From Chryseobacterium gleum (GTDB taxonomy: Bacteria; Bacteroidota; Bacteroidia; Flavobacteriales_F; PHOS-HE28), in assembly GCA_945872795.1 (NCBI GenBank), contig CAMCAZ010000010.1:2135-66134 (forward strand): DNA of 64,000 nt, given 5' to 3'. The notes under the pieces are model-generated. The model made no database searches. It was not told the DNA's origin and saw only the letters and a program-made list of their open reading frames with translations. Below, piece after piece: positions 18,370-48,675 of this stretch (the first letter of the stretch is position 1; each line of letters begins with the position of its first letter). A program made the translations under genes and the position numbers.

Positions 18370-18618
18370 GTGCATTTCTACATCCTTCATTCCGCCATCC
18401 TGGATCGATACTACTTGGGCCACACCAGCGAGGCGTTGGATGAACGGTTGCGCAAGCATTTGAGCGCCCACAGCGGCTGGACGGCCCGGGCCAAGGACTG
18501 GCGCCTGGTCCACCATGAGCTATTTGCCACGAAGAGTGAAGCCTATCGGCGTGAACTGGAGGTGAAGGGCTGGAAGAGCAGACCACGGCTTGAGGCCTTG
18601 ATCGGCGCAGCCCGGTAG
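18370..18618 (+). CDS. GIY-YIG nuclease superfamily protein (small stand-alone URI domain, ~82 aa)
   Basis: GIY-YIG motifs HFYILHS…RYYLGHT…RLRKH…; conserved downstream E in ATKSEAYRRE; GTG start; stop codon lies inside the D-loop of the downstream tRNA fragment. Confidence 0.75.
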   Translation: MHFYILHSAILDRYYLGHTSEALDERLRKHLSAHSGWTARAKDWRLVHHELFATKSEAYRRELEVKGWKSRPRLEALIGAAR

Positions 18619-18721
18619 CGCATCCCGCTTTGGGCGGGATGGTCGCTGGTTCGAATCCAGTCACCCCGACTGGCTGATACAAGAAGGCTGTTCTCCCCGG
18701 AGAGCGGCCTTCTGCATTTCC
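18605..18721 (+). repeat. 5'-truncated tRNA-like 3' fragment plus 81-bp direct repeat copy 2
   Basis: D-arm through 3' acceptor present but no 5' acceptor strand; 18641-18721 duplicates 18281-18361. Confidence 0.85.
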
Positions 18722-30474: not shown

Positions 30475-33400
30475 TCAGTTCGCCCCATAGCGGGGATCTT
30501 GTTTCCACGGGAGCTTCTCCATGTGTTCCACGCTCAGGGAGCAGTGCCCGAATTCCTCCTCCACCTTGCCCGTGAGGCGATAGACGCCGCGCCCCCGGAA
30601 CGGATACTTCGCCTCCACATTGGGGAACTGCGTGCTGTCCCAGAAATCACCTGCCGGGTCGATGAAACTGCCGAAGCTCATGCGTTCCCCGGTGCCGGTC
30701 CGCGTGGGCTTCACGTGCACCACATAACCCAGCATGGTCACCGTGCGGCCGTTATGGGCAGGCATATCGCGGGCCAATATCACAGGAGGTGTGATGTGTG
30801 AAGTGTTTGGTGTGAACTGTGAAGTGGTCGCATTCCCATCGCGCCTTCGCGAAGCCTTCGGTGAAGCGAGGTCATCCGTTTGTCCGATCACCTGTTCGTC
30901 CGATCCGCCCTTGACCAGTAGGAAGGGATCGCACAGCGGGAAGCCGAGCAGTTCCAGTTCGTCATAGGCATCGCTGAGGTCGAAGTGCTGGAGTTCTGGC
31001 AGCTTCGTTTGCGGAGTTTTGGTGATGAAGAGGTCGACGCTGCGCTCGATGGCCTTCGCGCCGGGATGCAGCAGCGTGAGGTCCCACAGCAGCTCGGGTT
31101 TGCTCTTTCCGGTGAAGCGGAAGGCTCCCACGCGGATCAGCATGCGGGCCTGTTCCACGCCGATGGACACGCGGCGCAACAGGTCGGGGAGGTCGGCGAA
31201 GGGGCCGTGACGGCGGCGGTCCGTGAGGATGCGTTCCACCGTGGCGGAGTCCAGGGATCTGATGTTCCGGAGACCGAGATAGATGCTGGCCTTTAGCCGT
31301 GGGCTACTGGCTTCTGGCCGATCATCGGAACGGCCAGAAGCCAGCGGCCAAGGGCCAGCAGCGTGCAACGTGCAGAGCTCCCCGCTCCGGTCCACGCACG
31401 GTGCCTCGATCACCGCCCCGGCGCGTTTCGCCTCGTGCAGGTAGAACTCCGTGTGGTAGAAGCCGCCGAAGTTGTTCGCCACGGCCACCATGAACTCCAG
31501 CGGGTGGTAGGCCTTCAGGTAGAGGCTCTGATAGCTCTCCACCGCATAGCTGGCGCTGTGGCCCTTCGCGAAGCTGTAGCCGGCGAAGCTCTCGATCTGC
31601 CGCCAGATCTCGGCGCTCTCCTCCGCCGGGTAGCCCTTCTTCATGCAGTTGTCGAAGAAGCGCTCCTTCACGCGTTGGAACTCCTCCCGGCTGCGGTACT
31701 TGCCACTCATGCCGCGACGCAGGATGTCGGCCTCGGCCAGCGTGAGCCCCGCATACAGGTGCGCCACCTTGATCACGTCCTCCTGATAGACCATCACTCC
31801 GTAGGTGTCGGGCATGATCTTCAGCATCGCCGGGTGCGCCTGCTTGCGCCGTTCGGGATCGCGGTGCCGCAGGATGTACTCGCGCATCATGCCGCTCTGC
31901 GACACACCGGGTCGGATGATGCTGCTCGCCGCCACCAAGGTCAGGTAGTCCTGCACGCCCAGCTTCTTCAGCAGCATCCTCATGGCCGGGCTCTCCACAT
32001 AGAAGCAGCCGATGGTGTCGCCGGTGCGAAGGAGTTCGTTGATCTTCGGATCGTGCTTGAAGCGTTCGATGGCGTGAATATCGATCAGGGGTCGACCCAG
32101 TGGGTCGACGGTACGGGTGCTTCGACCATACGTAAGCGCCATCACTGCACCCGTTCCGATCGCCGTTTCAGGTTCCGGCTCGCTGGCCATCTGTGATGAG
32201 GTGCAATTCCCATTTTCTGATCGTCTGATCATCTGATCATCTGATCCGCATTCCACGAGCTCCACCGCATCCCGTATATGCCCCAGGCCCCGCTGGCTGA
32301 GGATGTCGAACTTATACAGCCCCAGGTCCTCGGCCTCGAGCATGCTGAACTGCGTGGTGGCGAAGCCCTTCGGCGGTAGGTGCAGCGCGGTGTAGTGGGT
32401 GAGGGGCTGCTCGCTGATCAGCACGCCGCCGACGTGGATGCTCAGGTGGTGCGGATGCTCATGGAAGTGCTCCGCGTAACGCAGGATGGTGCGGGCGATG
32501 CGTTCGTTGTCGATCTCCACGCTGCCGCCGTTCGAGGCCTTCGCGTTGTCGCCGCGCCCGATCCAGCGCGAGTGACCCGCATCCCCTTCGGCGAGCGCGT
32601 CGATGTCCGCCGGCGGAAGGCCGAAGACCTTGCCCAGTTCGCGCACCACGGCGCGGCGCTGGTACGTGCTGTACGTGGCGAGCAGCGCGACCCTGCGCTG
32701 TGCACCGTAGGTGTCGAAGAGGTACTGCGTTACCTGGTCACGGTCCTTCCAACTGAAGTCCAGGTCGAAGTCGGGCGGGCTGCTCCGGCTGGGGTTGATG
32801 AAGCGCTCAAAGTAGAGGTCGAGCTCGATGGGGTCCACGTCGGTGATGCCCAGGCAATAGGCCACCAAGCTGTTGGCGCCACTGCCGCGCCCCACGTGGA
32901 AGAAGCCCTTGCGCTTCGCGAAGCGGATCAGGTCCCAGTTGATCAGGAAGTAGCTCACGAAGTCCTTCTGGGCGATCACGGTGAGTTCGCGATCCATACG
33001 GTCCATCACCTTCTGCGAAGGTGCGGGATAGCGGCGAAGCAACCCCGCCTGGGTCTCCGTGCGCAGCAGTTCGAGGTCCGCTGAAGCATCATTGCTCCAG
33101 GTCCTCCGGTTCTTGCTCTTGCCATGGGCGAAGTGCACATCGCACTGGTCCATCAGGCGGCGCGTGTTCCACACCAGCTCGGGCACATCGGCGAAGGCGG
33201 TGCACACCTGCTCCTCGCTCAGGAAGCGGTTCTCCGGTACTGAGACATGTGCTGTCGGTGTGGTGCTCAGCAGGGTGTTGGTGTCCACCGCACGTTTCAA
33301 GCGGTGCACGTTGAAGTCGCGTTTGCCCAAGGGCACATCACTGTGGAAGGTGGCTGTGACCAGGGCGAGCAGCTTCTCTTTGCGTGCCATCCACGGCGAG

Positions 33401-33891: not shown

Positions 33892-36800
33892 TTACAGCAC
33901 CAATCGATCATCCTCCCCCTCCCGGTCGAAGAACAAGTGGTCCGGGTCGAGCAAGACCTCCAAGGGCTTCAGGGACGTGGTGATGTGAACGTGGTTCTTC
34001 CCGCTGAGCGAACGTACCCGTTGCTTCACCTCTTTACCGCCTTCCACCCGTACACTGACATCGATCCAGTCGTTCATCGGCACCTCCGTTTCCTTTCCCG
34101 AGGGATCGGCATGGAGCTTCGCGCAGGTGATGGAAGCGGTAACGGTCCACGACCCATCCGTATGCTGTACGGCCGAGGCGGAGGACAGTGCGTTCCTGTG
34201 GAAGGTGATCTGCTCCAGACCATCCACCAACAGGTAGTGCAGACTGTCCGGGGTCACGGCCTCCAACGCGCGATACAGGTCAAGCGTGGTGGGGTAGGGG
34301 GCTTCACCGAAAGCGAAGGAATCCACCATCGATCGATAAGCGGAATTCACCTGTTCCTCGCCGATCAGGTCTCGCAGGGCATACATCACCACACTGCCTT
34401 TGTTGTAGTGGATGTACTGCTGGTCCTCCACCCGCATCAGCGGCAATTCCCCAATGCCTTCCTGTCCCCGACCGCGTAGGTAGTTGTCGCGCTCGTACTT
34501 CAGGAAGCGGCGCATCGCCTTGCGACCATACTCCTTCTCCATCACCATGAGCGCGGTGTATTGCGCCATGCTCTCCACGAGCATGGTGGATCCCTGCATG
34601 CGCGGCCCCAGCACCTGGTGGCCCCACCATTGATGGGCCACCTCGTGCGCCACCACGTAGTAGACCATGTCGATGCGGCTGGTGTCGCGCAGGTCGGTGA
34701 TGAAGCCGATGGCCTCGCTGTACGGCATGGTGCCCGGGAAGGATTGCGCGAAGCGGCGGTACCTGGGGAACTCGATGATGCGGGCCACCTCATGCTGATA
34801 GGGGCCGAATTCGGTGGAGGCATAGCTCAGTGCGTCACGCATGGCCTTCAACATGCGCGGAACGTTCGTGCCGTGCTCCGGATGGTGGTACACCTCCAAG
34901 GTGACCGGGCCGGCCTGCTCACGGGCCACTTGATAGCGCGCGCTCAGCACCGCCCAGAAGTTGAAGATGGGTGCCTGGCAGACGTAGCGGTACCAGCGTT
35001 TTCCATCCGCCGTCCAGTCCTTCACCAGGGTCCCCGGTGCGATACCGATCTGGTCCGGTGCGGTGCCGATGGTACAGGCGAAGCGGATGCGGTCGGCATG
35101 GTCCATGGTCTCGTTCGTGGCACGGTCACGCGGATCATCGCTCAAGGGTGCGGTGCGCGGTCGCACCGGTAGGCCGGCCTTTCGACGTTCGCCCGGTTCG
35201 GACAGCTCCACTTGGTCCTGGTAGCCGATCATGGGCAACAGGTCCATCGTGTTCAAGAAGGTCCCGTTCTCCACCAATGACAGGAACTCCACATCGTTCG
35301 TGAAGCCCTTGGGCGCCCATTCCCCGGTGACCACGACCCGTACGGAGTCGCCGGTGCTGAGGGAGCGATCCAAGCGGAACATCCGCTGGAAACGGGCGCT
35401 ATCGTTCAGCACCAAGCGGGCGCTCGGCACCTCGAAGCTCATGTGCATGTGATCGGGCAGGCTGAACCACAACGTATCCACCGGAGCGTCACCCTTGTTG
35501 GTGAGCATCATCTCAGCCGTGTATCGGATGCTGCGTTCCTCGGGCTCAAGCTCCACGGTGATATCCACGGCGGTGAAGTGTGGAAGAGCGGTGTTGGTGA
35601 AGCGCTTGTAGGTCCGTTCGTAGTCGACCTGGAGCGCCTCCGTATCCTGTTCGGTGACCGGTCGGTTCAGGATACGGGTGTTGTAGAAGCCGATGAGCAG
35701 CAACACGACCCACGCGCCGAATGCCAGAGCTCCCGTTCTCCAGGATCGCTTCCATCGGATCCCCGCGATGCGCCAGCGCCAACCCCAAGTGGTCTCACCA
35801 CCGCGCACCACGAAGAGCGAGGCGATGAAGAGCAGGCACACAGCGAAGGCGAGCCAGTAGGCCCGGAAGAACGTCCAGGGCATCATAAATGGACCGAAGC
35901 CGTTCATGTCCGAGTACAGCAGCCGAGGTCCGCCATAGAACACCAGTAGGTTGGACTCCACCTTCAGGAAGCGCCAGATCAGCGTGTTCACAGCGAAGAG
36001 CACGACGAACAGGCCGAAACCGACGTACTTATGGTGAACGAGCGTTTGGATGGTCAAGGCCACCATGGACCAGAACGCGAACGCGATGACGCCGGGCAGG
36101 ATGAAGCCCAGCAGGTAGGTCACGGGCTGGTTGTCGGTGTAGCCCTGCGCCAGTTGACCGATCACCCCGATCACGGCCATGAGTGTGAGGACGAACGCCC
36201 CGACAAGGATGAGCGTGCTGAGCTTGGCCAACAGGGGGAATGAGGTGCGCACAGGAAGCGCGTTCATGATCCCCTCCAGGCCGGCATCGCGATCACGCCA
36301 CAGGAGTTCACCGCTGTAGAAGGTGATCAGCACCATCACGAACAACATGGACATGCCCCGCAGCATCTCGGCCACGTGGTAGGTCACCGGCCAGCTGTGG
36401 TTGCCGAAGGCCGAGGTCACTTCGCTCAGGCTGATGGCGGTCATCAGTAGGCCGAGGCCAGTGATGATCCAGAACACGGGTGAGCCGAGAATGCCACGCA
36501 GATCGGAACCTATCAAAGCAAAGAAGCGCCTCCACTGGGATGTCCACCCATAGTGGAGTTGGATGTTCGGGAGCGTCTTATCCGCTCCGGAGTGCAGCGC
36601 TTCGTCAGCGACCTTGAGGTGACCGGGTCGCCGCCGTTCGGTGAACGTGAAGCGGAGGTACCCCACAAGGAAGATCACCGCTGCGATCCCCAGCCAGAGA
36701 AAGCGATTCCAGATGAGGGCGCCGCTCAATGGGAGCAGGGCGCTGTTCCGTTCATCCACGCTCCAGTAGCGCGTCACTTCATCCAGTGCCTGGTTGGCGA

Positions 36801-37428
36801 AAGGGTCCAAGAGCGCGGCAAGCAGACCATTGTCCACTTCCGTGGAATAGGCCGTGGCGATCACGTTGAGCACGACCAGGGCTATGGACGTGACGAACGC
36901 CGCTGCCGCCGAGCGTACCACGGTGGCCACCGCGAACATCACCGCGCTTTGGAAGAGGATGCTGGTCACCGCGAACAAGAGGAAGGTCTGCGCATGGACC
37001 ATCGGATCGTTCGGACCGAAGCGGATGGGGTCGCCCGAAGGGATCCAACTGCCGACGATGAGGCCCGCGGAGATCCCCAGCGTTGGGATGAGGGCCACCA
37101 CGGTGCTGCCCAGGAAGCGGCCCAGCACGTACTGGCGTTTACTGACCACCGTGCTGAACACGATGTCCGAGGTATGGTGTGCGAAATCGCGGATCGCGGT
37201 GGCGTTCACGAACGCCGTGACCATGGGGAGCCAAAGGAAGGCCAGGTTGGCATAGAGCTCATAGACGTGTGAGGGCGAGTTCACGTGCACCATCCCCGGG
37301 CTACCCTTGCCGCCGCTCTCGAACACCGCCAGTAAGCAGGCGAATGTGAAGGCCATGCCGAGGAAGATCCACAGCTGGGGTTGACGCAGCCAGAAGCGGA
37401 GCTCGAAGTGGATGAGGCGTGTGATCAT
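33892..37428 (-). CDS. fusion protein: N-terminal ABC-2-type permease (multi-TM) and C-terminal M1 zinc aminopeptidase domain (paralog 2)
   Basis: ~550-aa polytopic N-terminus; C-terminal gluzincin motif VVAHEVAHQWWGHQV…E (Glu at +20 rather than the canonical +19) and GxMEN-like region; paralogous to 37599-41210. Confidence 0.75.
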   Translation of the reverse strand: MITRLIHFELRFWLRQPQLWIFLGMAFTFACLLAVFESGGKGSPGMVHVNSPSHVYELYANLAFLWLPMVTAFVNATAIRDFAHHTSDIVFSTVVSKRQYVLGRFLGSTVVALIPTLGISAGLIVGSWIPSGDPIRFGPNDPMVHAQTFLLFAVTSILFQSAVMFAVATVVRSAAAAFVTSIALVVLNVIATAYSTEVDNGLLAALLDPFANQALDEVTRYWSVDERNSALLPLSGALIWNRFLWLGIAAVIFLVGYLRFTFTERRRPGHLKVADEALHSGADKTLPNIQLHYGWTSQWRRFFALIGSDLRGILGSPVFWIITGLGLLMTAISLSEVTSAFGNHSWPVTYHVAEMLRGMSMLFVMVLITFYSGELLWRDRDAGLEGIMNALPVRTSFPLLAKLSTLILVGAFVLTLMAVIGVIGQLAQGYTDNQPVTYLLGFILPGVIAFAFWSMVALTIQTLVHHKYVGFGLFVVLFAVNTLIWRFLKVESNLLVFYGGPRLLYSDMNGFGPFMMPWTFFRAYWLAFAVCLLFIASLFVVRGGETTWGWRWRIAGIRWKRSWRTGALAFGAWVVLLLIGFYNTRILNRPVTEQDTEALQVDYERTYKRFTNTALPHFTAVDITVELEPEERSIRYTAEMMLTNKGDAPVDTLWFSLPDHMHMSFEVPSARLVLNDSARFQRMFRLDRSLSTGDSVRVVVTGEWAPKGFTNDVEFLSLVENGTFLNTMDLLPMIGYQDQVELSEPGERRKAGLPVRPRTAPLSDDPRDRATNETMDHADRIRFACTIGTAPDQIGIAPGTLVKDWTADGKRWYRYVCQAPIFNFWAVLSARYQVAREQAGPVTLEVYHHPEHGTNVPRMLKAMRDALSYASTEFGPYQHEVARIIEFPRYRRFAQSFPGTMPYSEAIGFITDLRDTSRIDMVYYVVAHEVAHQWWGHQVLGPRMQGSTMLVESMAQYTALMVMEKEYGRKAMRRFLKYERDNYLRGRGQEGIGELPLMRVEDQQYIHYNKGSVVMYALRDLIGEEQVNSAYRSMVDSFAFGEAPYPTTLDLYRALEAVTPDSLHYLLVDGLEQITFHRNALSSASAVQHTDGSWTVTASITCAKLHADPSGKETEVPMNDWIDVSVRVEGGKEVKQRVRSLSGKNHVHITTSLKPLEVLLDPDHLFFDREGEDDRLVL

Positions 37429-37598
37429 TCAACGCGTGATGAAGCGAAAGCGACCCAATAACGAACGCGATCGAACAGGGAATGCGCAACGGCCCGTTCC
37501 GTTACGGACGCATCCCCGTTCGACCGATCAAGGCCGCAACCACTGGACGACCGACCTCATTCAACTTCCAATCACCGATCGTTCCGATCGACCGTTCC

Positions 37599-40500
37599 TC
37601 ACTCCACCTCCACCTTCTTCACATTGTCCTGCATCACGCGATCGAAGAACAGGTTGTCGCGGTCGATCACGGCCTGCATGGGTTTCTCCTGTACGATGAA
37701 GGTCAGCTTGTTCACACCCGAGCGCAGGCGCAGCCGTTGGTGTACGAGCGGCACCTCGTTCAGCGACTTGTCCGCCTTCCTTCCCAGCTTTGGGTAGCGC
37801 AGGATGCTGACGTCCATCCAGTCGTTCATGGGAGCTGGTGTCTCGCGACCGAGGGAATCGGCATAGTTCTTCTCACCGAAGAGTTCGAGCGTCACTTCGT
37901 AGGTGCTGTCCGGCAACATGCGGGCGCTGGCCTTGTCCACCCGGTTGTTGTAAAGCGTGATCCGTTTGAAGCCATCGATCAGCAGGTACTCCAGGCTATC
38001 AGGTACCACCTGCTCCAGTTCGCGGTACATGTCCAGCGCGGTGGGGTATGGCGGCTCCGCATAAGCGAAGGTGTCCACCAGCGCCTTGAAGGCCCTGTTC
38101 AGGTTCTCCTCGCCCACGAAGTCGCGCAGGCCGTAGAGCACCACGCTCGCCTTGTTGTAGTGCACGTACGGCTGGTTCTCCACCTCCATCAGGGGCACCT
38201 CCTTCAGCTCCTCGGTGCCGCGTGCACGCTGGTACCGGTCGCTCTCCAGCTTCAGGAACTTGCGCATCTGCGCCCGGCCGTACTCGTCCTCCATCACCAT
38301 CAGGGCACTGTACTGGGACATGCTCTCGCTGAGGAGGGTGCTGCCCTGCATGTCGGCGCCGATCACTTGGTGGGCCCACCACTGGTGCCCCATCTCGTGC
38401 GCCACCACGTAGAACACCATGTCGATGTCGGTGGTGTCGCGCAGGTCGGCGATGAAACCGATGGACTCGCTGTAGGGCATGGTGCCCGGGAAGGCCTGGG
38501 CGAAGCTGAAGTACCGGGGGAACTCGATGATGCGCGCCTGCTTGTGGCGGTAGGGGCCGAAGTTGTCGCTGTAGTACTGGAGCGACTTGCGGATGCTGTT
38601 CGCCATGCGCGGCACGTTCTCGGCGTGGTCCGCGTGGTAATAGACCTCCACGTCCACACTCTGCCCTGAGCCTGTCGAAGGGTGCCACTTCTCACGGTGC
38701 ACCGCGTAGTCGGCGCTCATGAACGAGTAGAAGTTCATGCTCGGATGGTCCACCACGTACTCGAAATAGCGTTTGCCGTTCTCCGTCCACTCGCGCTTCA
38801 GGCTGCCCGGTGCGATGGCGATCTGGTCGGGCGTGGTGCTGATCACGGTGCGCACGGTCACCCAGTCACTGTTCGGCACCAGGTAGGTCTGCATGCGCGC
38901 TGCGCTATCGGCTGAGAGGCGCGGCATGCGCTCCTTCGCAGGAAGCCCGCGGTCCTTACGCTCGCTCTTGTCCTGCAGTTCGCCTCCGGCCGAGTAGCCG
39001 ATGCCGGGCAGCAGGTCCATGTTGTTGAAGAAGGTGCCGTTGTGGTTCAGTTGCGCCACGCGGGGCTCGTTCTCGAAGCCCTTCTCCACGTGGGTGGCGG
39101 TGACGGTGAAGCGTAGGTCCTCGCCGGGCATCAGGGGCCTGGCGAGCTTGTAGATGCGGTAGTTCACGCGCTCGTCGTTCAGCACTAGTTGAGCGCCGGG
39201 CAGGTCCACCTCCTGCTCGATGCCGCCGCCGCCCATGTTCAGGTGCAGCGAGTCGATCGGAGCGTTGCCCTTGTTGTGCACGGTGACCTCCGCCACGGCG
39301 TGCAGGCTGCGCTCGGCGGGTACCAGGTCGATGGTGAAGCGGATGTCGGTGTAGTGCGGCTGCAGCATGCCCTCGTACCGCTTGTAGGTGCGCTCGTAGT
39401 ATTCCAGGTCGTCCTCCATGGTGGAGGCATCGGGCATCTCGTTCAGCACCTTGGTATTGTAGTAACCCCAGGCGCCGAGCAGCACCCAGGCGGAGAGGGC
39501 GGGGATGGCGTATCGCTTGTTGGTGCGCAGGCGGCCCCCGGCGATGGCCAGTCGCTTGCGGAAATGTGTTTCCCGGCCGCGCACCCAGAAGAGCAGCGTG
39601 ATCACGAGCAGCACGGCGGAAAAGGCCCACCAATAGGCCTTGAACCACAGCCAGCCCGTGAGCGCCGTGCCATAAGTGTTCATGTCGCTGTAGCTGAGGT
39701 TCGGCGCGCTGTTGAACTGCACCAGGTGGCTCGTGACCTTGAGCGCCGGCCACAGGATGAGGTTCACGGCCAGCACCACGAGGAACACCGCATAGCCCAC
39801 GTACTTGTTATTCACCAGCACGTGGCAGAGGAACGAGAGCGCGGCCAGCGCCCCGAAGCCCAGCAGGCCGGGCACGATGTAGTAGCCGAGGTAGACACCC
39901 GGCTCGATGCGCGTGTAGCCGTTGATGAGCTGGAAGACCATGCCCCCCAGCGCAGTGACCAGCAATACGGTGAGCAGCAACAGCAGCAATGCCGTGTACT
40001 TCGCCAGCAGCCCGATGCCCAGCGGCAGCGGCGTGGCGTCATGCACCTCGTCCAGCTTGGGCTCGCGCTCTTTCCACACCAGCAGCCCGCTGTAGAAGAC
40101 GATGAGGATGGTGGTGAAGAGACCGAAGCCCCCTTCGATGACGTCGATGACGTTGTAGGTGACCGGGTGTATGGTGTTCTCGTAGAGCGAGGTGCTGAAC
40201 GAGAGGTTGAGGAACATGTTGAGCAGCCCTATGCCGGTGACGAGCAGGAAGGCCACGCCGCGGGTCATGCCGGTATAGTCGTTCCACGCAATGCGGCGGA
40301 ACTGCCGGATGCGCGCCACGGCGCCGTGGCTGCGATCCACCCGGGGCAGGGGCACGGCTGCTGGGGCCGCGACGGGACTCACGGCGGGCTCGGCCAGGGG
40401 CGCACGCTGCCGCCGGTCGGTGAAGCTGAAGCGCCAGTAGCCGAAGGCGAAGATGCCGGCGGCGACCGCGGTCCAAAGGATGCGGTTCCACAGCAGCACA

Positions 40501-41210
40501 CCGCTCATCGGCAGCAGCAGCGTGTTCTTGTCGTCCACGGTCCAGTAGCGGGTGATATAGCTGAATGCGGTGCTGCCGAAGGGGTCCAGGAGCGAGGCCA
40601 GCACCTGGTTCTCCATCTCGGTCATGAGCGAGCCGGCCACGCCGCTGCCCACCATGATGAGCACGGCCGTGATGAAGGCCGCCGCCGTGCTGCGCACCAG
40701 TACGGCCACCGCGAAGATCACGGCAGCGCTGAAGACGATGTTGGGCAGGGTGAGGTATAGGTAGGCCTGCAGGTGCGCGCCCATCAGGTTGGGGCCGATC
40801 TTCTCGGGATCGAGCCACCACATCCAGCTGCCCACCACGATGCCGAGCGACACCCCCAGCATGGGCAGGCTGGCGACGAAGGTGCTACCCAGGAAACGGC
40901 TCAGCAGGTAGTGCCGCTTCTTCAGCGGGGTGCTGAACATGATCTGCTGCGTGTTGTACGTGAAGTCGCGGATGGCGCTCGCGTTCACGAAGGCGGTGAC
41001 CATCAGCAGCCCGAAGAAGGCCAGGGTGGCATAGTAGACGAACACCTTGTAGGGCGCGTTGTACTTCACGTTGGCCAGTTCGGCACCCACCTGCACCTCG
41101 TCGATCACCAGGCTCAGGTAGCTCAGCAGGGCGAAGAGCAGCAGGAAGATGTACGCCATGGGCTGCCTCAGCCAATGGCGCAGTTCGATGAGGAGGAGCC
41201 GCCAGGTCAT
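37599..41210 (-). CDS. fusion protein: N-terminal ABC-2-type permease and C-terminal M1 zinc aminopeptidase domain (paralog 1); start overlaps the ATPase gene stop (ATGA)
   Basis: Same architecture; VVAHEMGHQWWAHQV…E; 4-nt overlap with upstream ABC ATPase gene indicates translational coupling. Confidence 0.75.
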   Translation of the reverse strand: MTWRLLLIELRHWLRQPMAYIFLLLFALLSYLSLVIDEVQVGAELANVKYNAPYKVFVYYATLAFFGLLMVTAFVNASAIRDFTYNTQQIMFSTPLKKRHYLLSRFLGSTFVASLPMLGVSLGIVVGSWMWWLDPEKIGPNLMGAHLQAYLYLTLPNIVFSAAVIFAVAVLVRSTAAAFITAVLIMVGSGVAGSLMTEMENQVLASLLDPFGSTAFSYITRYWTVDDKNTLLLPMSGVLLWNRILWTAVAAGIFAFGYWRFSFTDRRQRAPLAEPAVSPVAAPAAVPLPRVDRSHGAVARIRQFRRIAWNDYTGMTRGVAFLLVTGIGLLNMFLNLSFSTSLYENTIHPVTYNVIDVIEGGFGLFTTILIVFYSGLLVWKEREPKLDEVHDATPLPLGIGLLAKYTALLLLLLTVLLVTALGGMVFQLINGYTRIEPGVYLGYYIVPGLLGFGALAALSFLCHVLVNNKYVGYAVFLVVLAVNLILWPALKVTSHLVQFNSAPNLSYSDMNTYGTALTGWLWFKAYWWAFSAVLLVITLLFWVRGRETHFRKRLAIAGGRLRTNKRYAIPALSAWVLLGAWGYYNTKVLNEMPDASTMEDDLEYYERTYKRYEGMLQPHYTDIRFTIDLVPAERSLHAVAEVTVHNKGNAPIDSLHLNMGGGGIEQEVDLPGAQLVLNDERVNYRIYKLARPLMPGEDLRFTVTATHVEKGFENEPRVAQLNHNGTFFNNMDLLPGIGYSAGGELQDKSERKDRGLPAKERMPRLSADSAARMQTYLVPNSDWVTVRTVISTTPDQIAIAPGSLKREWTENGKRYFEYVVDHPSMNFYSFMSADYAVHREKWHPSTGSGQSVDVEVYYHADHAENVPRMANSIRKSLQYYSDNFGPYRHKQARIIEFPRYFSFAQAFPGTMPYSESIGFIADLRDTTDIDMVFYVVAHEMGHQWWAHQVIGADMQGSTLLSESMSQYSALMVMEDEYGRAQMRKFLKLESDRYQRARGTEELKEVPLMEVENQPYVHYNKASVVLYGLRDFVGEENLNRAFKALVDTFAYAEPPYPTALDMYRELEQVVPDSLEYLLIDGFKRITLYNNRVDKASARMLPDSTYEVTLELFGEKNYADSLGRETPAPMNDWMDVSILRYPKLGRKADKSLNEVPLVHQRLRLRSGVNKLTFIVQEKPMQAVIDRDNLFFDRVMQDNVKKVEVE

Positions 41211-42094
41211 GCCGCCACGGTGTTGGGGGTGTCCAGGATGCGGCTGAAGAAGACGTCCTCCAGCCCGGGCTCGGCCGCAGTGAAGCCGTCGCCCGGGGGC
41301 GTGTCGCTGAGGATGTGGATGGAGGGCCGCCCACTGATGAGCTTGTTGCTGATCACATGGTATCGGGCATGGTGATCCTCCAGCTCGGCCTTGGCGATGC
41401 TCTTCTCCCAGATGCGGCCCTTCACCTCGCGCAGCGCATCGTTCGGCGATCCGGCGAACAGCAGGCGTCCCTTGTTGATGATGGCCATGTTGCGGCAGAG
41501 TTCCTGCACGTCCTGTACGATGTGGGTGCTGAGGATCACCACCACGTTCTCGCCGATCTCCGTGAGCAGGTTGTAGAAGCGGTTTCGCTCGCCGGGGTCG
41601 AGGCCGGCAGTGGGTTCGTCAACGATGATGAGCTTGGGTTCGCCGATCAGCGATTGGGCGATGCCGAAGCGCTGCTTCATGCCTCCACTGAATCCGGCAA
41701 TGCGGCGCTTGCGGTGCTCCCACAGGTTCACCTTCTGCAGCAGCGCCTCCACCAGGTCCTTCCGCTGGCCGTTGTTGATCACCCCCTTCAACAGGGCGAT
41801 GTGGTCGAGCATCTGGTAGGCGCTCACCCGCGGGTACACCCCGAACTCCTGTGGCAGGTAGCCGAGCACCTTCCGCACCTCGTCCTTCTGGCGCAGCACA
41901 TCGATGTTCCCGAGCATCACCGTGCCGGCATCGGCCTCCTGCAGCGTGGCCAGGATCCGCATGAGCGAGCTCTTGCCCGCACCGTTGGGACCCAGCAGGC
42001 CGAACATGCCGGTGGGGATGGTGAGGGTGACGTTGTCCAGCGCCTTCACGCCATTGGCGTAGGTCTTGCTGAGGCCGTTGATGACAAGTTCCAT
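41207..42094 (-). CDS. ABC transporter ATP-binding protein
   Basis: Walker A GPNGAGKSS, Q-loop, signature LSGGMKQR, Walker B IIVDEPTAGLD, H-loop. Confidence 0.9.
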   Translation of the reverse strand: MELVINGLSKTYANGVKALDNVTLTIPTGMFGLLGPNGAGKSSLMRILATLQEADAGTVMLGNIDVLRQKDEVRKVLGYLPQEFGVYPRVSAYQMLDHIALLKGVINNGQRKDLVEALLQKVNLWEHRKRRIAGFSGGMKQRFGIAQSLIGEPKLIIVDEPTAGLDPGERNRFYNLLTEIGENVVVILSTHIVQDVQELCRNMAIINKGRLLFAGSPNDALREVKGRIWEKSIAKAELEDHHARYHVISNKLISGRPSIHILSDTPPGDGFTAAEPGLEDVFFSRILDTPNTVAA

Positions 42095-42248: not shown

Positions 42249-43161
42249 TCACTCCTCCCCGAAGAAGTCGCTGTCGATGCGCTTCACAGCGTAGGTGCGC
42301 TGGGTGGTGACGCCGAGATCGTGGTCGATCATCAGTTGGGTGAGCTCCTCACCGTCGAGAAGGACGATCTTGGTCTCGTTGCGGGGTATGTACTCGCGGG
42401 CTTCTTTGCTGAACGAAGAGGTGGTGATGAAGATGCCCTTCTTTGCGCCCTGCCCGGCCAATGCTCCTACGAACTTCTGGATCTCTGGACGGCCCACGGT
42501 GTTGCCGGTATTCCACTTCTTGGCTTGGATGTAGATGATGTCCAGCCCCAGTTTGTCCTCTTTGATGGTGCCGTCGATGCCTTCGTCGCCACCCTTGGTA
42601 AGCGCACGACCTGCGTCCTTCACGGAACCGCCGTATCCCATGCGTACGAGCAGCTGCACCACGAGGCGTTCGAAGTCCATCCAGGTGAGGGATCGGACTT
42701 TTGCGAGGAGTTCTTGGCCGATGGTTTCCCGGATCTGTTCGTATGCACCATCCAGTAATTCTTCCGGTGTGCGCGAGTTGTCCGCGTCGGCGGTCTGGGC
42801 TGAAGGAGTATTATCCCGCTTCATGGTCTGGAACTCCACGAATTCCGGGAAGCGTCTGAGGTAGCCTACGTCGATGCGTTCCGGTTTTTGCTTCAGTATC
42901 TCCAAGCCACGAGGCGTTATCTGCATCATCGCGCGTTTGGGTGAAGCGACCAGACCGGCCTTCTTGAGATACGTACGTGCCCATCCTACGCGGTTGTCGA
43001 ACGCGGCCTGCATACCGCTCTAGCATCTCACGTCGCTCCTCCTCGGTCAGTTTGAACTGTGTGGCCAAGCCCTCCACAACATCACGAAGTGCATGCACCC
43101 TGTTGTCGGATAGATAGCTCAACAAGGGCAACATGATGCTTTGATAATCGGGAACGGCCAT
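42249..43161 (-). pseudogene. mrr: Mrr-family type IV restriction endonuclease, interrupted by a frameshift near 43010
   Basis: Mrr N-terminal winged helix (MAVPDYQSIMLPLLSYLSD…) in one frame (43161-~43010) and Mrr catalytic domain (…NRVGWARTYLKKAGL…GIDG…IYIQAKKW) in another frame (42249-43013). Confidence 0.7.
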
Positions 43162-43407
43162 GATGTGATCGGTTCAGTTGAGAGGGTAAGATCGTTGATC
43201 CATCCGGTTGTTGTGCGTGAGGGATGGTAGCGGCAGCTTGCCGCCGGACCGGCCCAGCAGCGTAAGGAGCGAGGAGGCCCGACGATAGGAGGGACCCCGC
43301 AGCCCGATGCGATGCGGGCCGGGCCAAGGCAACTACAGCGGACAGCCCGACCCCGCGCGCTGGCCGGTGGGAGGAAGGGGGGCACGCCCGAAGGCCAATC
43401 AGACTAT

Positions 43408-43559
43408 GAGAAGATCAGACGATCAGATGATCGCCCGCGCGCATGCCCACCCCAATGCCGATCAAATGGTCACAAGATCCTGGCTGTGGTTCTTCGCTGG
43501 TATGGTCGGCGGCAGGCATTTCCATTTTCTGATCTTCTCATTTTCTGATCGTCTGATCC
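43408..43559. repeat. MITE-like structure: inverted copies of the GATCAGACGATCAGA / TCTGATCGTCTGATC motif flanking ~110 bp
   Basis: 43408-43432 GAGAAGATCAGACGATCAGATGATC and 43523-43559 CATTTTCTGATCTTCTCATTTTCTGATCGTCTGATCC, same motif family as 32208-32247 and 46752-46795. Confidence 0.6.
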
Positions 43560-43564
43560 CCTAT

Positions 43565-43615
43565 GTTCTCCTATTCGCCAACAATACCGGCGCCTGTCCA
43601 TCGAAGGGGCGTTAT
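43565..43615 (-). repeat. orphan copy of the dinB 3' terminus (encodes PFDGQAPVLLANRRT-stop on the minus strand)
   Basis: ~80% identical over ~70 bp to 45391-45460; within the 16 shared codons all 7 nucleotide differences are synonymous. Confidence 0.75.
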
Positions 43616-43740
43616 CACGGCCGCAATGCCGAGCAATAGTTTCGGTTCCGTATTATTGCCATACGAACCAGTGCGGAGGTGCTGTGGCATTAGTCGGGAG
43701 CGCATGGCAGGATTCAGAGCGGTTCGAGAAGCTCTTCGTC

Positions 43741-45381
43741 ATGAAAACCCTTTACACCCTTTTGGCGACCTCGGTGATCCTGAGCACGGATCTCGTGGCA
43801 CAGACGTTCTCGAACACCACAGCAGCTGCCTGCAACACGTGGGATTCGGGGAATGCCTACACGGGTTTTCAACGGACCATCGCAGTGGCCGCCTTGCCTA
43901 CGCCGTTGGGCGCTTCGGGAACGGTCTTGCGCCAAGTGAACCTGCAACTGGGCACTGCGGCGTGCAAAGGCAACCTGTCCACGTACTACGCACGCATCGT
44001 ATCACCTACGGGTACTGTCATCCAGTTGTTCGGGCCGTTCACCACGACGAGCACGAGCCAATGGATGAACATCAAGTTCCGAGATGACATCGCCTTGGAA
44101 CGTGTCCGCGACTACAGCACGACCACGCAACAGGGCTACCACCCGTGGAACGTAGGCTACTGCCGCACGGATGCGGTCAATGCGTTCACCACGGTGAACG
44201 GGGAAGACCCGAACGGCAACTGGACCTTCCAATTGGCTGAGAACACGACATCCGAGGTCTCGTTCCAACGTGTTGAACTCGTCTTCGGGCCACCCATCGT
44301 CGTGACCGATGTGACCGGTGGCTCAGGAAACGATTTCTGCAGCGGGGCCACCTGTATCGATGGATTGTCCGTGATCCGCGGAACGAACCTCGCTTATCCG
44401 CCACTTGATCCCTTTTACCCGGGCGATGTGGTGGGTGGCTGTGGTTGGAACGGTGCGAACAACAATAACGGATGGTACCGCTTCGTCGCATCCGGAACCA
44501 CAGCGAACATCACTGTGAGCGGCATGGTGAACACCACCGGTACAGGCACGGCGGACATGCAACTGGTCGTGGTCCAGCAGACCAACCCCATCTGCTCCGG
44601 TCCTCCGACCCTAGTGCCGACGGGAGGCTGTCCGGACCCCCCCGGTGTGAACAATACATCTTATGCCGCGCCGAACGGTGGTGTTGGTACAATGGCCAAT
44701 GTTTACTTGAACGGGATCACTGCGAATTGCGAGTTCAACCTCTCGGGGCTTACGGCCGGGAACAGCTATTACCTGATCATCGATGGGAACGGTGGTTTGT
44801 CATCCACCTTCTACATCGAGATGCCGAGTGGCGGGATCGACTGCAACATCCTGCTGCCGGTCACGTGGACGGCTTTCAACGTGGAATGCGAGATGGGCAA
44901 CCGGCGGATCTCCTGGACGGTGGCTACCCAGCAGGACAATGATCATTTCGAAGTGGAACGCAGTCTGGACGGCTCCTCTTGGAATGTGTTCGCTACTGTT
45001 CCCGGGGAAGGGACCACGCAAACGACCATGTCCTATGAAGTGCTGGACGACAACAGCGATATGCTCTTCGAACAGCCACTGATCTATTACCGGGTGAAAC
45101 AAGTGGACGTGAACGGGAACTTCAGCTTCACGCCGGTCGAGGCGAGCAGTTGTTCTGTGCTGCTGTACCCCAATCCGGCAAGCGATCACATCATCGTGGC
45201 TGTGCCCTTTGCCGGTGTCGATGTGCAGCTAGTGGATGCCATCGGACGGGTGGTGGAGATGCGCAAGACGCAAGGCACTACCATTCGGATGGACATCGGC
45301 CATCTGGCCTCCGGTTATTATGCGTTGCAGCTCCTCAGTTCTGGTGACCTGCTTGGCTCGGCCGTGGTGGTCAAGTTCTGA
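43741..45381 (+). CDS. secreted protein with proprotein-convertase P-domain-like module and T9SS type-A C-terminal sorting domain
   Basis: Signal peptide MKTLYTLLATSVILS; P-domain-like GEDPNGNWTFQLAENT; C-terminal LLYPNPASDHIIVAVP… CTD. Confidence 0.65.
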   Translation: MKTLYTLLATSVILSTDLVAQTFSNTTAAACNTWDSGNAYTGFQRTIAVAALPTPLGASGTVLRQVNLQLGTAACKGNLSTYYARIVSPTGTVIQLFGPFTTTSTSQWMNIKFRDDIALERVRDYSTTTQQGYHPWNVGYCRTDAVNAFTTVNGEDPNGNWTFQLAENTTSEVSFQRVELVFGPPIVVTDVTGGSGNDFCSGATCIDGLSVIRGTNLAYPPLDPFYPGDVVGGCGWNGANNNNGWYRFVASGTTANITVSGMVNTTGTGTADMQLVVVQQTNPICSGPPTLVPTGGCPDPPGVNNTSYAAPNGGVGTMANVYLNGITANCEFNLSGLTAGNSYYLIIDGNGGLSSTFYIEMPSGGIDCNILLPVTWTAFNVECEMGNRRISWTVATQQDNDHFEVERSLDGSSWNVFATVPGEGTTQTTMSYEVLDDNSDMLFEQPLIYYRVKQVDVNGNFSFTPVEASSCSVLLYPNPASDHIIVAVPFAGVDVQLVDAIGRVVEMRKTQGTTIRMDIGHLASGYYALQLLSSGDLLGSAVVVKF

Positions 45382-45390
45382 ACGGTCAGG

Positions 45391-46638
45391 CTACGTCCTC
45401 CTATTCGCCAACAACACCGGTGCCTGCCCATCAAAAGGGTTGTCCATCCGCCCGATGCTCTTCGCATCCATGCCGGCCGCGCGCATCACGGTGCGGTCGC
45501 CGAAGCGCTTGCGGATCTTGTCCATGGCCTGGTACAGGTCCATGGCCTCCTGCGTGTCGGTGAAGGCATCCATCTGGTGGCCGCCACCCACCAGGTGACT
45601 GAAGCGCACGCCGATCAAGCGGATCCGTTGGCGACGGTCGTACAGCGCGCGGAAGAGGTCGTGTACTGCGGGTAGGATGATGTGGTCGCAGGCCGTGTAG
45701 CCCACGCGCGCTTGTTTGGTGTGCGTGTTGAAATCGGCGTAGCGGATCTTCACCGCGATGCAGCTGGTGAGCTTGTCGCCCTTGCGCAATTGGAAGGCGA
45801 GGCTTTCGGCCATGGCGGTGAGCAGGCCTTTCAGTTTCACCACATCGATGGTATCGCGCTCGAAGGTGCGCTCCGTGCTGATGCTCTTGCGCTCGTGCCA
45901 GGCGATCACCGGACTATCATCGATGCCGTTGGCCTTGCGCCACAGCACAGGCCCGTGCTCGCCCAACAACCGGTGCATCAGGTCCACCTGCAGCTCTTGT
46001 AGCGTGTGGATCTTCGCCACGCCCATGCTGCGCAACAGGTGCGCGGTCTTCTCGCCCACGCCGGGGATGCGTTCTATGGGCATGGGCGCCAGGAAGGGTT
46101 TCTCCGTGCCGCGCTCCACGTACCATTCGCCCGCGCCGTTCTTCGCCTCGCCGGTGGCCACCTTGCTCACCGTCTTGTTGATGCTCAGCCCGAACGAATT
46201 CGGCAGCCCGCTATCCTTGATGATCTTCTGCCGCAGCTCCACCGCCAGCTTCCTGCTGCCGTGGAATTTGTCGGTGCCGCTCAGGTCCACGTAGAATTCG
46301 TCCACGCTGCTCTTCTCGAACAGCGGCACGTTCGCGCGGATGATCTCCGTCACCTCATCGCTCTTCTTCAGGTACGCTCCGCTGTCGCCGCGCAGGATGA
46401 TCGCCTCCGGGCACAACTGCTTGGCCATCTTCATCGGCATCGCGCTGCGCACCCCGAAGGCCCGCGCCTCGTAGCTGCAACTGGCCACCACGCCGCGGTC
46501 GCTGTCGCTCCCGATCAGCACGGGTCTCCCGTTCAGCTTCGGGTTCTCCAGCCGTTCCACGCTCACGAAGAAGGTATTGAGGTCCAGGTGGAGGATGGTT
46601 CGTTCGCCGTTGATCATTCTACATTCTTCATTCATCAT
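45391..46638 (-). CDS. dinB: Y-family DNA polymerase IV
   Basis: Catalytic LDLNTFFVSVE and SVDEFYVD motifs; little-finger domain; 415 aa. Confidence 0.85.
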   Translation of the reverse strand: MMNEECRMINGERTILHLDLNTFFVSVERLENPKLNGRPVLIGSDSDRGVVASCSYEARAFGVRSAMPMKMAKQLCPEAIILRGDSGAYLKKSDEVTEIIRANVPLFEKSSVDEFYVDLSGTDKFHGSRKLAVELRQKIIKDSGLPNSFGLSINKTVSKVATGEAKNGAGEWYVERGTEKPFLAPMPIERIPGVGEKTAHLLRSMGVAKIHTLQELQVDLMHRLLGEHGPVLWRKANGIDDSPVIAWHERKSISTERTFERDTIDVVKLKGLLTAMAESLAFQLRKGDKLTSCIAVKIRYADFNTHTKQARVGYTACDHIILPAVHDLFRALYDRRQRIRLIGVRFSHLVGGGHQMDAFTDTQEAMDLYQAMDKIRKRFGDRTVMRAAGMDAKSIGRMDNPFDGQAPVLLANRRT

Positions 46639-46673: not shown

Positions 46674-46795
46674 GGTCGACCCAGTGGGCCCGAGGCCTCG
46701 GGCGACACTACGGGTGCTTCGACCCAGATACCTGCATACCATCGTCCACAGGCATTCCCATTATCTGATCGTCTGATCATCTCATTATCTGATCC
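46674..46795. repeat. interspersed repeat copy B (122 bp), 36 bp upstream of the dinB start
   Basis: GGTCGACCCAGTGGG, an added GCCCGAGGCCTCGGGC palindrome, ACGGGTGCTTCGACC, CCCATTATCTGATCGTCTGATCATCTCATTATCTGATCC. Confidence 0.8.
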
Positions 46796-46976
46796 GTAGT
46801 TGGCCGCCTTAACGGGCTGTTCGCTGTAGTCCCGCACGGCCATGCCAGCGGTGGCGGCACTGCGGGGTTCCGCCGTACGGCGGACCTCCTCGTTGCACGC
46901 CCCCACAAGGCCCGGCCGTGCGGGAGCTGCCGCTCCCATCCCTGGCGGAAGATCCCGTCCCACCAACAGTTTCGTG

Positions 46977-47050: not shown

Positions 47051-47790
47051 ATGATGGGAACCCTGGCAATCAACCTTCGTCCTGCCGAAGCCTCTGGCGT
47101 AGGAGGACTCACCCGCAAGTCCCCGCACACGGACCTGCTGCCCTTGGAGTACCTCGTGGCCGCGGAACCTGCGCCTACCTACACGCCCGTGGCCCCGCCC
47201 GATGCCGCCATCACCGGCCGCATACACATCATCCGTGGGCAAAAGATCATGTTGGATCGCGACCTTGCTGAACTCTACGGCGTGGAGACCAAACACCTCA
47301 AGCGCCAAGTGAGAAGGAACCTGGGTCGCTTTCCGGAGGACTTCATGTTCGAACTTACCGCAGCGGAATGGGCCACTTTGAGGTACCAATTTGGCACTTC
47401 AAAGGACGAAATGCTCTCAGAACGAGGCGGTTCCAGGGTGCTCCCCATGGCCTTCACCGAGCAAGGCGTGGCCATGCTATCCAGCGTCTTGAACAGCGAG
47501 CAGGCCATCCTGGTCAACATCCATATCATTCGTGTCTTCTCACGTACCTGCCTGCCGGCAGGCAGGTGCGCGAAGTGCTCCTTTCGCACCGAGAGATCCT
47601 CCAGAAACTGGAACAACTCGAGGGTCGCCTCACCGGCCACGACGAGGAGGTCCAGGCCATTTTCGATCACCTCACGGAACTGGTCTCCCCAGCGGAGCAA
47701 GCGCGTAAGCCTATCGGCTTCAAACCGGAAGCTTCATCACCTTCTACTTGTCCGCCAGCTCCCAACTCCGGCAACTGTTCACCCGCATAA
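47051..47790 (+). pseudogene. ORF6N/KilA-N-domain protein, frameshifted at a 22-bp palindrome
   Basis: ORF6N domain ([21 protein letters not shown]…FPEDFMF…[25 protein letters not shown]) in frame 1; conserved C-terminal coiled-coil ([21 protein letters not shown]…PIGFKPE) continues in another frame from ~47560. Confidence 0.65.
47546..47567. repeat. perfect 22-bp palindrome ACCTGCCTGCCGGCAGGCAGGT at the ORF6N frameshift point
   Basis: Seen directly in sequence; homology switches reading frame across it. Confidence 0.8.
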
Positions 47791-47847
47791 GACGGTCCTT
47801 CAACCGTCATAGGACATTCCCTTCAACCGTCATAAGACACCCTTCAC
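47781..47847 (+). promoter_or_regulatory. tandem direct repeats (CCTTCAACCGTCATAGGACATTC / CCTTCAACCGTCATAAGACACCC, plus a third CATAAGAC half-site) immediately upstream of the lexA-like start
   Basis: Seen directly in sequence; two ~23-bp units and three CATARGAC cores within 65 bp. Confidence 0.5.
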
Positions 47848-48675
47848 ATGGCAAATCCCGTCTTCGGCTCCAACATCAAGCTCCTGCGCACCCGCCGTGG
47901 CCGCTCGCAAGAAGAGACCGCCATCGCCCTCGAGGTGAAACGTTCCAGCTACAGCGGCTACGAGAACGGTACGGCAGAACCCTCGTTCGAGCTGCTCGTA
48001 CGCATGAGCGAGTACTTCAAGGTGAGCATCGACAAACTGCTGCGCGATGATCTGGGCGCCCTCAGCGACAGCCAGATGGGCGTGCTGGAGCGCGGTGGTG
48101 ACATCGACCTCAGCGGTAGGCGCCTGCGGGTGCTGGCCACCACGGTCGATCGCGAGGACCGCGAGAACGTGGAACTGGTGCCCGAGAAGGCCAAGGCCGG
48201 CTACGCGCTGGGCTACGCCGATCCGGAGTACATCAGCATCCTGCCCACCTTCCAGATGCCCTTCCTGGCGCGTGACCGCAAGTACCGGACCTTCCAGATC
48301 AGCGGCGACAGCATGCCCCCCGTGGCGGACGGTTCCTGGGTCACCGGCGAGTATGTGCAGAACTGGCAGACCGTCCGCGATGGCCAGCCGTACATCGTGG
48401 TCACCAAGGATGATGGCATCGTCTTCAAGGTGGCCTACAACCAACTGAAGGAAAAGGGCACCCTACTGCTGTGCAGCACCAACCCGCTCTACGCGCCCTA
48501 CGAGGTGCAGGTCACCAATGTGCTGGAGATCTGGAAGTTCGTGCACTTCATCAGTGCCGAGCTGCCCGAGCCCAACATGAGCCGGGATGAGCTCGCCCGA
48601 AGCGTGGTGGAGCTTCGAAAGGAGGTGGGGCAGTTGCGCCTGGCCATGGAGCAGCAAGGGAGGCTGTCGTTCTGA
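47848..48675 (+). CDS. LexA-like repressor: XRE-family HTH fused to S24 peptidase (autocleaving) domain
   Basis: N-terminal HTH (IKLLRTRRGRSQEETAIALEV…), C-terminal S24 domain with catalytic Ser (FQISGDSMPP) and Lys region (GQPYIVVTKDDGIVFK). Confidence 0.8.
   Translation: MANPVFGSNIKLLRTRRGRSQEETAIALEVKRSSYSGYENGTAEPSFELLVRMSEYFKVSIDKLLRDDLGALSDSQMGVLERGGDIDLSGRRLRVLATTVDREDRENVELVPEKAKAGYALGYADPEYISILPTFQMPFLARDRKYRTFQISGDSMPPVADGSWVTGEYVQNWQTVRDGQPYIVVTKDDGIVFKVAYNQLKEKGTLLLCSTNPLYAPYEVQVTNVLEIWKFVHFISAELPEPNMSRDELARSVVELRKEVGQLRLAMEQQGRLSF

Follow-up and report, generated by a model that had tools for sequence, protein, structure and literature searches.

The dinB locus and its duplicated 3' end

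The window analyzed here is a 64,000-nucleotide stretch of DNA from Chryseobacterium gleum (GenBank assembly GCA_945872795.1, contig CAMCAZ010000010.1, positions 2,135 to 66,134 of the forward strand). It contains a dinB gene, which encodes DNA polymerase IV of the Y family, and the last codons of this gene occur a second time on the same strand, beyond a convergent gene for a protein secreted by the type IX secretion system (T9SS). The two copies are spaced 1830 bases apart, which confirms an original prediction, made from the letters of the window, of a same-strand duplicate about 1.8 kb away. The predicted coordinates needed correction in part: the functional dinB end does start at 45391 but runs to 45438 and not to 45447, and the second copy, called the orphan below, occupies 43561-43608 and not 43565-43615, a shift of 4 bases.

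Read on the minus strand, both copies consist of 15 codons, PFDGQAPVLLANRRT, and the stop codon TAG. They are identical at 41 of 48 bases, and all seven differences are synonymous third-position changes, as had been predicted; if seven differences fell at random among 48 sites, the probability of all of them hitting third positions would be 1.6e-4. The similarity extends from the stop codon at one end to a Pro codon at the other and includes an identical 17-base core, TTGTTGGCGAATAGGAG, inside both direct repeats. A BLAST comparison of the two copies within the window gave an E value of 2.5e-8. A degenerate pattern of the repeat matched exactly 2 sites in the window and none in 100 shuffles, which rules out a chance or low-complexity repeat, and no extra copies were found in the window with up to 3 mismatches allowed. 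An assembly artefact is also ruled out, since the duplicated structure recurs in the independent assemblies L082, L083, L084, and L091. The original prediction had coupled a lack of in-frame extension with an origin of the similarity in low-complexity sequence, and only the former is true: just upstream of the orphan its frame reads P-TGA-TAA-R, so the copy lies outside any open reading frame (ORF), and the in-frame TGA TAA rules it out as part of one. An Rfam scan of the window revealed no RNA family over the repeats, with only RNase P and tRNAs elsewhere.

The repeats bracket exactly one gene, again as predicted. This cargo gene is the sole sizeable ORF between them with a coding-like G+C content at third codon positions (GC3), its GC3 being 0.73 compared with 0.88-0.91 in the adjoining core genes. 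Its product had been described as a P-domain T9SS protein. The T9SS part of the description stands on the match to Por_Secre_tail, whereas the P-domain part has no Pfam support even at E <= 1, and no further significant Pfam domain was found in the protein. The stop codons of the cargo gene and dinB (45379-45393) are 9 bases apart with no terminator between them, and because the two genes converge in this way, transcription from each may run into the other. The features of the locus, together with duplicated gene ends discussed below, are listed in Table 1.

Table 1. Features of the dinB locus in the window and duplicated gene ends in related assemblies
Feature	Position	Strand	Remarks
ABC transporter ATPase gene	41207..42094	-	Conserved far boundary of the hypervariable region
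Mrr-type restriction gene, frameshifted	42249..43161	-	Next native gene after dinB, as in L018
Native dinB downstream flank	43390..43560		Imperfect palindrome of ~170 bases with 8-base repeats TCTGATCN
Orphan dinB 3' terminus, now non-coding	43561..43608	-	Where the dinB stop codon lies in L018, L016, and L003
T9SS gene upstream region and orphan junction	43609..43740		Orphan frame: CGC 43609-43611, TAA 43612-43614, TGA 43615-43617
Cargo gene, one T9SS-secreted protein, 546 amino acids	43741..45381	+	Convergent with dinB; Por_Secre_tail 1.7e-8
dinB, DNA polymerase IV (Y family), 415 amino acids	45391..46638	-	Pfam IMS 3.2e-43, IMS_C 8.2e-26, IMS_HHH
Functional dinB 3' terminus (PFDGQAPVLLANRRT + TAG)	45391..45438	-	Abuts the inserted T9SS gene via a 9-base spacer
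ORF6N gene	47051-47812		Conserved left-hand neighborhood together with the S24 gene
Helix-turn-helix (HTH) and S24 peptidase (LexA-like) gene	47848..48675	+	Pfam and synteny
S24 3'-end duplicates, L004	6433-6555 / 8219-8341
S24 3'-end duplicates, L008	5218-5315 / 6900-6997
ABC ATPase 5'-end duplicates (~190 bases), L007	11414-11603 / 13856-14047		Around an extracytoplasmic function (ECF) sigma gene and its neighbor

Relatives with and without an insert at dinB

For comparison, 80 dinB loci (L002-L081) were taken from species-representative genomes, of which about 40 belong to closely related uncultured Flavobacteriales with dinB genes of 82-99% identity. The relatives compared are uncultured and represented by metagenome assemblies throughout. 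About 24 of them have contigs spanning both ends of the region, with the gene order HTH-S24, ORF6N, dinB, a stretch of variable content, ABC ATPase, and ABC permease/M1 peptidase. From dinB to the ABC ATPase gene, this stretch measures 0.36 kb (L016) to about 7.6 kb and holds different genes, with the variation setting in right at the dinB stop codon. In all, the sequence past dinB was seen to be hypervariable in about 30 related Flavobacteriales assemblies. In L018 and L016, the stop codon of the functional dinB gene is followed by the same palindrome as in the window, with Mrr coming next in L018, and there is no insert; the orphan plus flank aligns colinearly with the dinB tail and flank of L018 as far as the Mrr start codon. 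L003, which is among the closest relatives, has the orphan-type sequence "TAG GGGATCAGA" after the dinB stop. The empty site that had been proposed as a search target, with dinB directly joined to the flank of the upstream copy, is therefore present in L018, L016, and L003, and the finding of that flank directly after dinB in insert-free relatives bears out the suggestion that the dinB 3' end was the point at which the T9SS gene was acquired.

The window is the L018-like arrangement plus 1830 bases, comprising a dinB end, the 9-base spacer, the convergent T9SS gene, and 132 upstream bases. Because insert-free relatives have a colinear flank after their single dinB gene, the orphan is the resident dinB gene's own end, which appears to have been displaced by the end of an imported allele, and the functional terminus would have arrived together with the T9SS gene. 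The identification of the native copy was decided by the flanks; base differences to the closest relatives were uninformative in this respect (3-12 versus 0-13).

The sequence directly after the dinB stop codon in the relatives comprises several classes of periodic arrays (GATCAGAN, AATGGACN, AATGTAGA, and CAAGTNN). The 8-mer element directly follows the stop codon in L003, L016, L018, and L033; L037 and L038 carry a related variant, and related GATCAG-type arrays occupy this position in L016, L018, and L033. In the window, the inverted array pair that forms the native flank folds into a hairpin of about 170 bases (-69.9 kcal/mol, z = -3.3). Arrays of the TCTGATCN repeat also occur at 46746-46804 and 32198-32256, and weakly at 30865-30907, and one of the copies, about 110 bases upstream of the dinB start, has the orientation of that after the native dinB end. 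The periodic arrays may be elements resembling repetitive extragenic palindromes (REPs) or miniature inverted-repeat transposable elements (MITEs), or promoter elements. The Mrr gene beyond the native flank is split into two overlapping frames, with Mrr_N in 42811-43161 and the Mrr_N remainder plus Mrr_cat in 42249-43013; it is probably a frameshifted pseudogene, and the L018 copy is intact.

A second, independent event at dinB is documented by a pair of relatives, L025, in which the site is empty, and L023, in which it is occupied. Their dinB genes are 94.7% identical and their downstream flanks 93.2%. L023 carries 1657 extra bases, with the last 31 bases of dinB present twice. The insert opens with another stop codon (TAA) and contains a repeat element and two genes, one encoding a 4-helix bundle (weak 23S_rRNA_IVP match) and the other a lipoprotein. 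This content is the native post-dinB sequence of L002, L010, L011, and L012, and also of L004 and L014 over the examined sequence. The insert terminates within a convergent T9SS-domain gene, of which it includes the last ~28 codons (ending in LPSGLYLLRAADGSAAHVVKE and a stop codon) up to a cut at the orphan junction. The repeat starts 15-17 bases later than in the window, and 10 codons are kept in the L023 orphan. Because this arbitrary chunk of donor chromosome stops inside a gene, the comparison indicates an illegitimate junction and not a defined cassette boundary.

The T9SS gene of the window had no blastn match in the 80 dinB loci. It is present in the separately fetched contigs L001, L082, L083, L084, and L091, and all five assemblies with the gene at dinB (the window, L082, L091, L083, and L084) have the orphan behind it. 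Two variants of the region upstream of the gene were distinguished. Type A is shared, with the same junction, by the window, L083, and L084, which have three different flanks past the orphan. Type B, which is strongly diverged, occurs in L082 and L091, whose flank is 99-100% identical to that of the window. In its last codons (RRA) and its flank, the L084 orphan agrees with a dinB end of the L022 type. The surroundings of the more distant T9SS homologues that were found (42-75% identity), including the 75%-identical homologue in L101 (GCA_964649165.1), are unrelated and contain no dinB end, and the upstream regions of these homologues gave no alignment to the 132 bases of the window. Exact look-ups in public assemblies recorded nothing for the T9SS protein and a 2.5-kb contig only for dinB.

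Identity among these assemblies varies along the locus. Between the window and L082, it is 97-100% over S24, ORF6N, and the first ~800 bases of dinB, 82-100% over the dinB 3' part and the T9SS gene, 56-67% over the T9SS 5' end and upstream region, and 99-100% beyond, starting with the orphan's distal third. Within dinB, the first ~800 bases are 99-100% identical and the last ~400 bases 91-95%, with a breakpoint near base 800. Between the window and L083, identity is 80-90% over dinB and the T9SS 3' half and 92-99% from mid-T9SS to the orphan. The upstream region of the T9SS gene is therefore 92-99% identical to that of L083 and 56-67% identical to that of L082, an otherwise near-identical strain. 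Because these identity profiles are mosaic, tracts of homologous recombination terminate within dinB, within the T9SS gene, and within the orphan, and the orphan behaves as a short homology patch where exchanges stop. The conserved S24 and ORF6N neighborhood could provide a long homologous anchor.

Origin of the orphan terminus

The orphan is likely to be a recombination scar, left by homologous recombination anchored in dinB combined with an illegitimate or short-homology join. The ancestral order, kept by L018 and L016, is S24, ORF6N, dinB with its stop codon, the 8-mer palindrome, Mrr, more genes, and the ABC transporter. DNA of a related lineage, presumably taken up by the cell, would have brought in the 3' part of its own dinB gene and the convergent T9SS cargo gene. 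One crossover, by homology, would have taken place in dinB or its conserved upstream neighbors, and the other join, illegitimate or by short homology, at codon Pro-15 of the resident dinB. The outcome would be a dinB gene of resident and donor parts, followed by the T9SS gene, its 132 upstream bases, the resident dinB's final 48 bases, and the native flank. Such an event would keep dinB intact, because the donor brings a complete 3' end, and would reduce the resident end to a non-coding stub. Later exchanges may have taken the 48-base stub as a homology boundary, shifting the T9SS segment or swapping flanks among lineages, and may also have refreshed the stub itself. The direct repeats should in addition permit precise loss of the T9SS gene.

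The silent-only divergence of the two copies is explicable without selection on the orphan, because functional dinB ends from different lineages differ likewise. Pairs drawn from 41 functional ends differ on average at 6.1 of 45 bases (15 codons; range, 0-14), with at least 7 differences in 39% of the pairs. In the first 14 codons of these ends, 3520 of 3636 codon differences (97%) are synonymous. This population comparison was used in place of the formal ratio of nonsynonymous to synonymous substitution rates (dN/dS) that had been proposed; in a codon-aware comparison the differences between the copies are indeed all synonymous, and a formal dN/dS is meaningless with dN = 0 over 15 codons. 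Judged from these ends, the pair in the window is an ordinary between-lineage pair. The copies would be orthologous ends from two lineages, with silent differences only because each end evolved under purifying selection when functional, and the pattern supports the predicted former role of the upstream copy as the end of a functional dinB gene. The peptide is fully intact in the orphans of the window and L083. The L082 and L091 orphans have a change of Pro to Ser at the first codon and are otherwise intact, and the L084 orphan has the non-synonymous changes V to M and L to I. Because the L084 changes are non-synonymous and the window orphan lies behind two in-frame stops, these sequences offer no evidence of selection on the orphan peptides.

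The C-terminal peptide of DinB was also checked for a beta-clamp-binding motif, the consensus of which is of the QL[SD]LF or QxxLxF type. The peptide PFDGQAPVLLANRRT misses this consensus, and other Bacteroidota have E, D, or G in place of its Q. A motif resembling the consensus, HQMDAF, lies about 55 residues before the C terminus and aligns with QINLF or QIDLF in relatives, the conserved pattern being [HY]Q[IM][DNS][LAM]F. Bacteroidota DinB proteins have a common C-terminal tail, NPFxGxPPxLLA[NH]R[RK]x (45391-45560 on the minus strand of the window, residues ~360-415), which is separate from the canonical clamp-binding pentapeptide.

Several points weigh against a recombination scar. The donor order, dinB and the T9SS gene without an orphan, was not found, and the orphan is present in five of the five assemblies. 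In types A (window, L083, and L084) and B (L082 and L091), the join to the orphan lies at the same position to within 1-4 bases. This shared junction would be explained more simply by a fixed recombination site, and the recombination model must posit one old junction followed by exchange of diverged alleles. The intact orphan peptide of the window, L082, and L083, apart from the Pro-to-Ser change, would have to be put down to youth or repeated refreshment. Transformation or another route of DNA uptake is not known for these uncultured bacteria, and homology-facilitated illegitimate recombination is reported to be rare in the species where it has been measured (PMC5361080).

Scars of this kind, with duplicated gene ends, are not confined to dinB. 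A scan of 1.49 Mb of fetched sequence revealed about seven such loci. In L004 and L008, the 3' end of the S24 repressor gene (98-123 bases) is duplicated around one Fib_succ_major gene; in L007, the duplicated part is the 5' end of an ABC ATPase gene; and L008, L014, and L015 carry 3' stubs of Mrr. In L101, an HPPD-like 3' end (terminating in KALFEAIEREQENRGTL and a stop codon) occurs three times, at 331-461, 1940-2048, and 4070-4267, as one functional end and two orphans. The array there consists of the HPPD gene, cupin and TetR genes, an orphan, a T9SS gene, and another orphan, and the orphan pair brackets the 75%-identical cargo homologue.

The fixed site just mentioned would belong to a non-autonomous cassette moved by a trans-acting site-specific recombinase, with the dinB 3' end as its attachment site and a gene-restoring mimic of that end carried on the cassette. 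Such an element would be comparable to e14 or phage 21 at icd, or to cis-mobilizable elements without an integrase of their own. It would explain the direct repeats with their 17-base identical core around exactly one gene, the occurrence of one T9SS segment and junction before three different host flanks, the near-identical join position of types A and B, and the covariation of the orphan's distal part with the host flank, as in a hybrid attachment site. We nevertheless regard this explanation, the main rival, as unlikely, and the dedicated integration site that the original prediction had offered as an alternative is not borne out. No recombinase was detected by ORF and Pfam analysis within the 1.83-kb insert or in its immediate neighbors (dinB, Mrr, ORF6N, and S24), a search that was not genome-wide. 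The repeat in L023 has a different start (31 versus 48 bases), and the insert there, which simply copies donor chromosome, has a truncated gene at its end. Equivalent duplications at unrelated genes, with repeats of 31-192 bases, are beyond a single site-specific system, and tract ends also fall within the dinB body and in mid-T9SS.

Three known classes of elements fit the locus poorly. For a site-specific integrative element of the e14/icd type, the direct repeats at the target end are present, but there is no integrase or recombinase gene between them and no boundary common to independent insertions. For an integron gene cassette, no integrase was found among the Pfam-tested ORFs on either side, and the repeat unit is a coding gene end and not an attC-like palindrome. 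For a transposon or MITE, the duplication should be short and exact, but this repeat has 48 bases and 7 mismatches, and the two ends of the insert share no inverted repeat.

The favored explanation of the original prediction, a second paralogous dinB-like gene beside the T9SS gene of which all but the last 16 codons were deleted, is very improbable. The silent-only divergence does show that the copy formerly ended a functional dinB gene, and the data agree both with an immediate cut to 48 bases at integration and with later deletion of a longer remnant. However, the orphan's flank natively follows the single dinB gene in relatives, neither a second dinB-like gene nor a longer remnant was found within 10 kb in about 40 close relatives, and no dinB similarity is left upstream of the orphan in the window. 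That the orphan is itself functional and under selection, as a small DinB-tail peptide or through a regulatory or terminator role at the T9SS gene or Mrr, is scarcely credible: an ATG-initiated 25-codon ORF, MRKRVSLAPTSFDGQAPVLLANRRT, does run over the orphan in L082 (8071-8148) and L091, and the peptide has stayed intact in the window and L083, with only Pro to Ser at codon 1 in L082 and L091, despite several base changes, but the window and L083 (TGA TAA) and L084 (TAA TGA) have in-frame stops just upstream and no start codon, L084 has non-synonymous changes, the L023 orphan retains 10 codons only, and a silent pattern is fully to be expected when functional ends diverge between lineages.

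A recombination scar thus being preferred for the orphan, a wider proposal may be put forward tentatively, although we consider it rather doubtful: short, strongly conserved gene termini such as those of dinB, the S24 repressor, and HPPD might act in this clade as portable, recombinase-independent cassette boundaries. If so, after a terminus has been displaced, a single accessory gene could by way of the two direct repeats be gained, swapped across 15%-diverged lineages, stacked into arrays (L083 and L101), and precisely lost, which would amount to an integron-like gene flux from homologous recombination alone, with accessory genes that often encode secreted proteins. If orphans are reusable homology patches, they would offer a simple path to single-gene gain and loss beside core genes. 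The dinB-to-ABC interval is a recombination hot spot, with turnover of T9SS cargo and accessory genes in abundant uncultured Flavobacteriales, many of the genomes concerned being derived from wastewater and lake metagenomes. Orphan termini are useful as markers of the direction and boundaries of past imports and as pointers to empty-site relatives. The locus also illustrates that two copies of a gene end with silent-only differences can arise without selection on the extra copy.

Three further repeats were observed in the window. A 23-base tandem repeat (3.2 copies, 47778-47846) lies between ORF6N and the S24 repressor gene. A tRNA 3' part with a terminator-like hairpin at 18245-18361 is duplicated 360 bases downstream at 18605-18721 (118 bases at 91.5% identity, with a core of 82 bases at 99%), and Rfam identifies the second copy as a partial tRNA. 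Tandem paralogous ABC-permease/M1-peptidase genes at 34270-38520 and 37599-41210 have a repeat spacing of 3752 bases and are 65-77% identical.

Comparison with known systems

By mechanism, the closest analogues of the dinB scar would be the displacement arrays of Rhs and type VI secretion system (T6SS) loci (PMC5361080), and by topology the icd/icdC pair at e14 (PMC13626634). Displacement of C-terminal parts has been reported for Rhs genes (Jackson et al. 2009, as cited in PMC5361080), and T6SS clusters of Vibrio cholerae carry orphan effector 3' ends together with immunity genes (Kirchberger et al. 2017, PMC5361080). In those arrays, as here, an upstream anchor is conserved, and an incoming 3' end pushes the resident 3' end downstream, where it stays as an orphan with its orientation unchanged; homology-facilitated illegitimate recombination, without an integrase, has been proposed there as well. 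The differences lie in the parts involved. The anchor at dinB is a housekeeping or SOS polymerase gene and not a toxin gene, the displaced piece comprises 10-16 codons that encode the same peptide as the incoming end and thus brings no protein diversification, and the cargo is an unrelated neighboring gene and not a toxin tip with its immunity gene.

There are reports of homology-facilitated illegitimate recombination in bacteria that are naturally transformable (de Vries & Wackernagel 2002; Prudhomme et al. 2002; Meier & Wackernagel 2003, all as cited in PMC5361080) and in Escherichia coli conjugation (PMC3240628). The likeness to the dinB locus is that one-sided homology plus an illegitimate or microhomology join puts foreign DNA beside a conserved gene. 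Unlike those cases, the event at dinB is deduced from comparative sequence alone, in Flavobacteriales with no known uptake route, and the orphan left at dinB by the first event appears to serve afterwards as a short second homology.

At icd of E. coli, the e14 prophage and phage 21 are likewise inserted in the 3' end of a conserved gene, supplying a surrogate end and leaving the original end beyond the insert as a C-terminal fragment, icdC (Hill et al. 1989, as described in PMC13626634). According to the same account, the icd and icdC copies differ mostly at silent sites and are recombined with each other by excision (PMC13626634). However, the 15-kb e14 prophage has a site-specific integrase of its own and an attachment site that is fixed, whereas the insert at dinB comprises 1.83 kb with one cargo gene and no recombinase, and the independent event at dinB in L023 has another junction. 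What is new here is a known type of scar at a polymerase gene of an uncultured lineage, with a gene for a secreted protein as its cargo.

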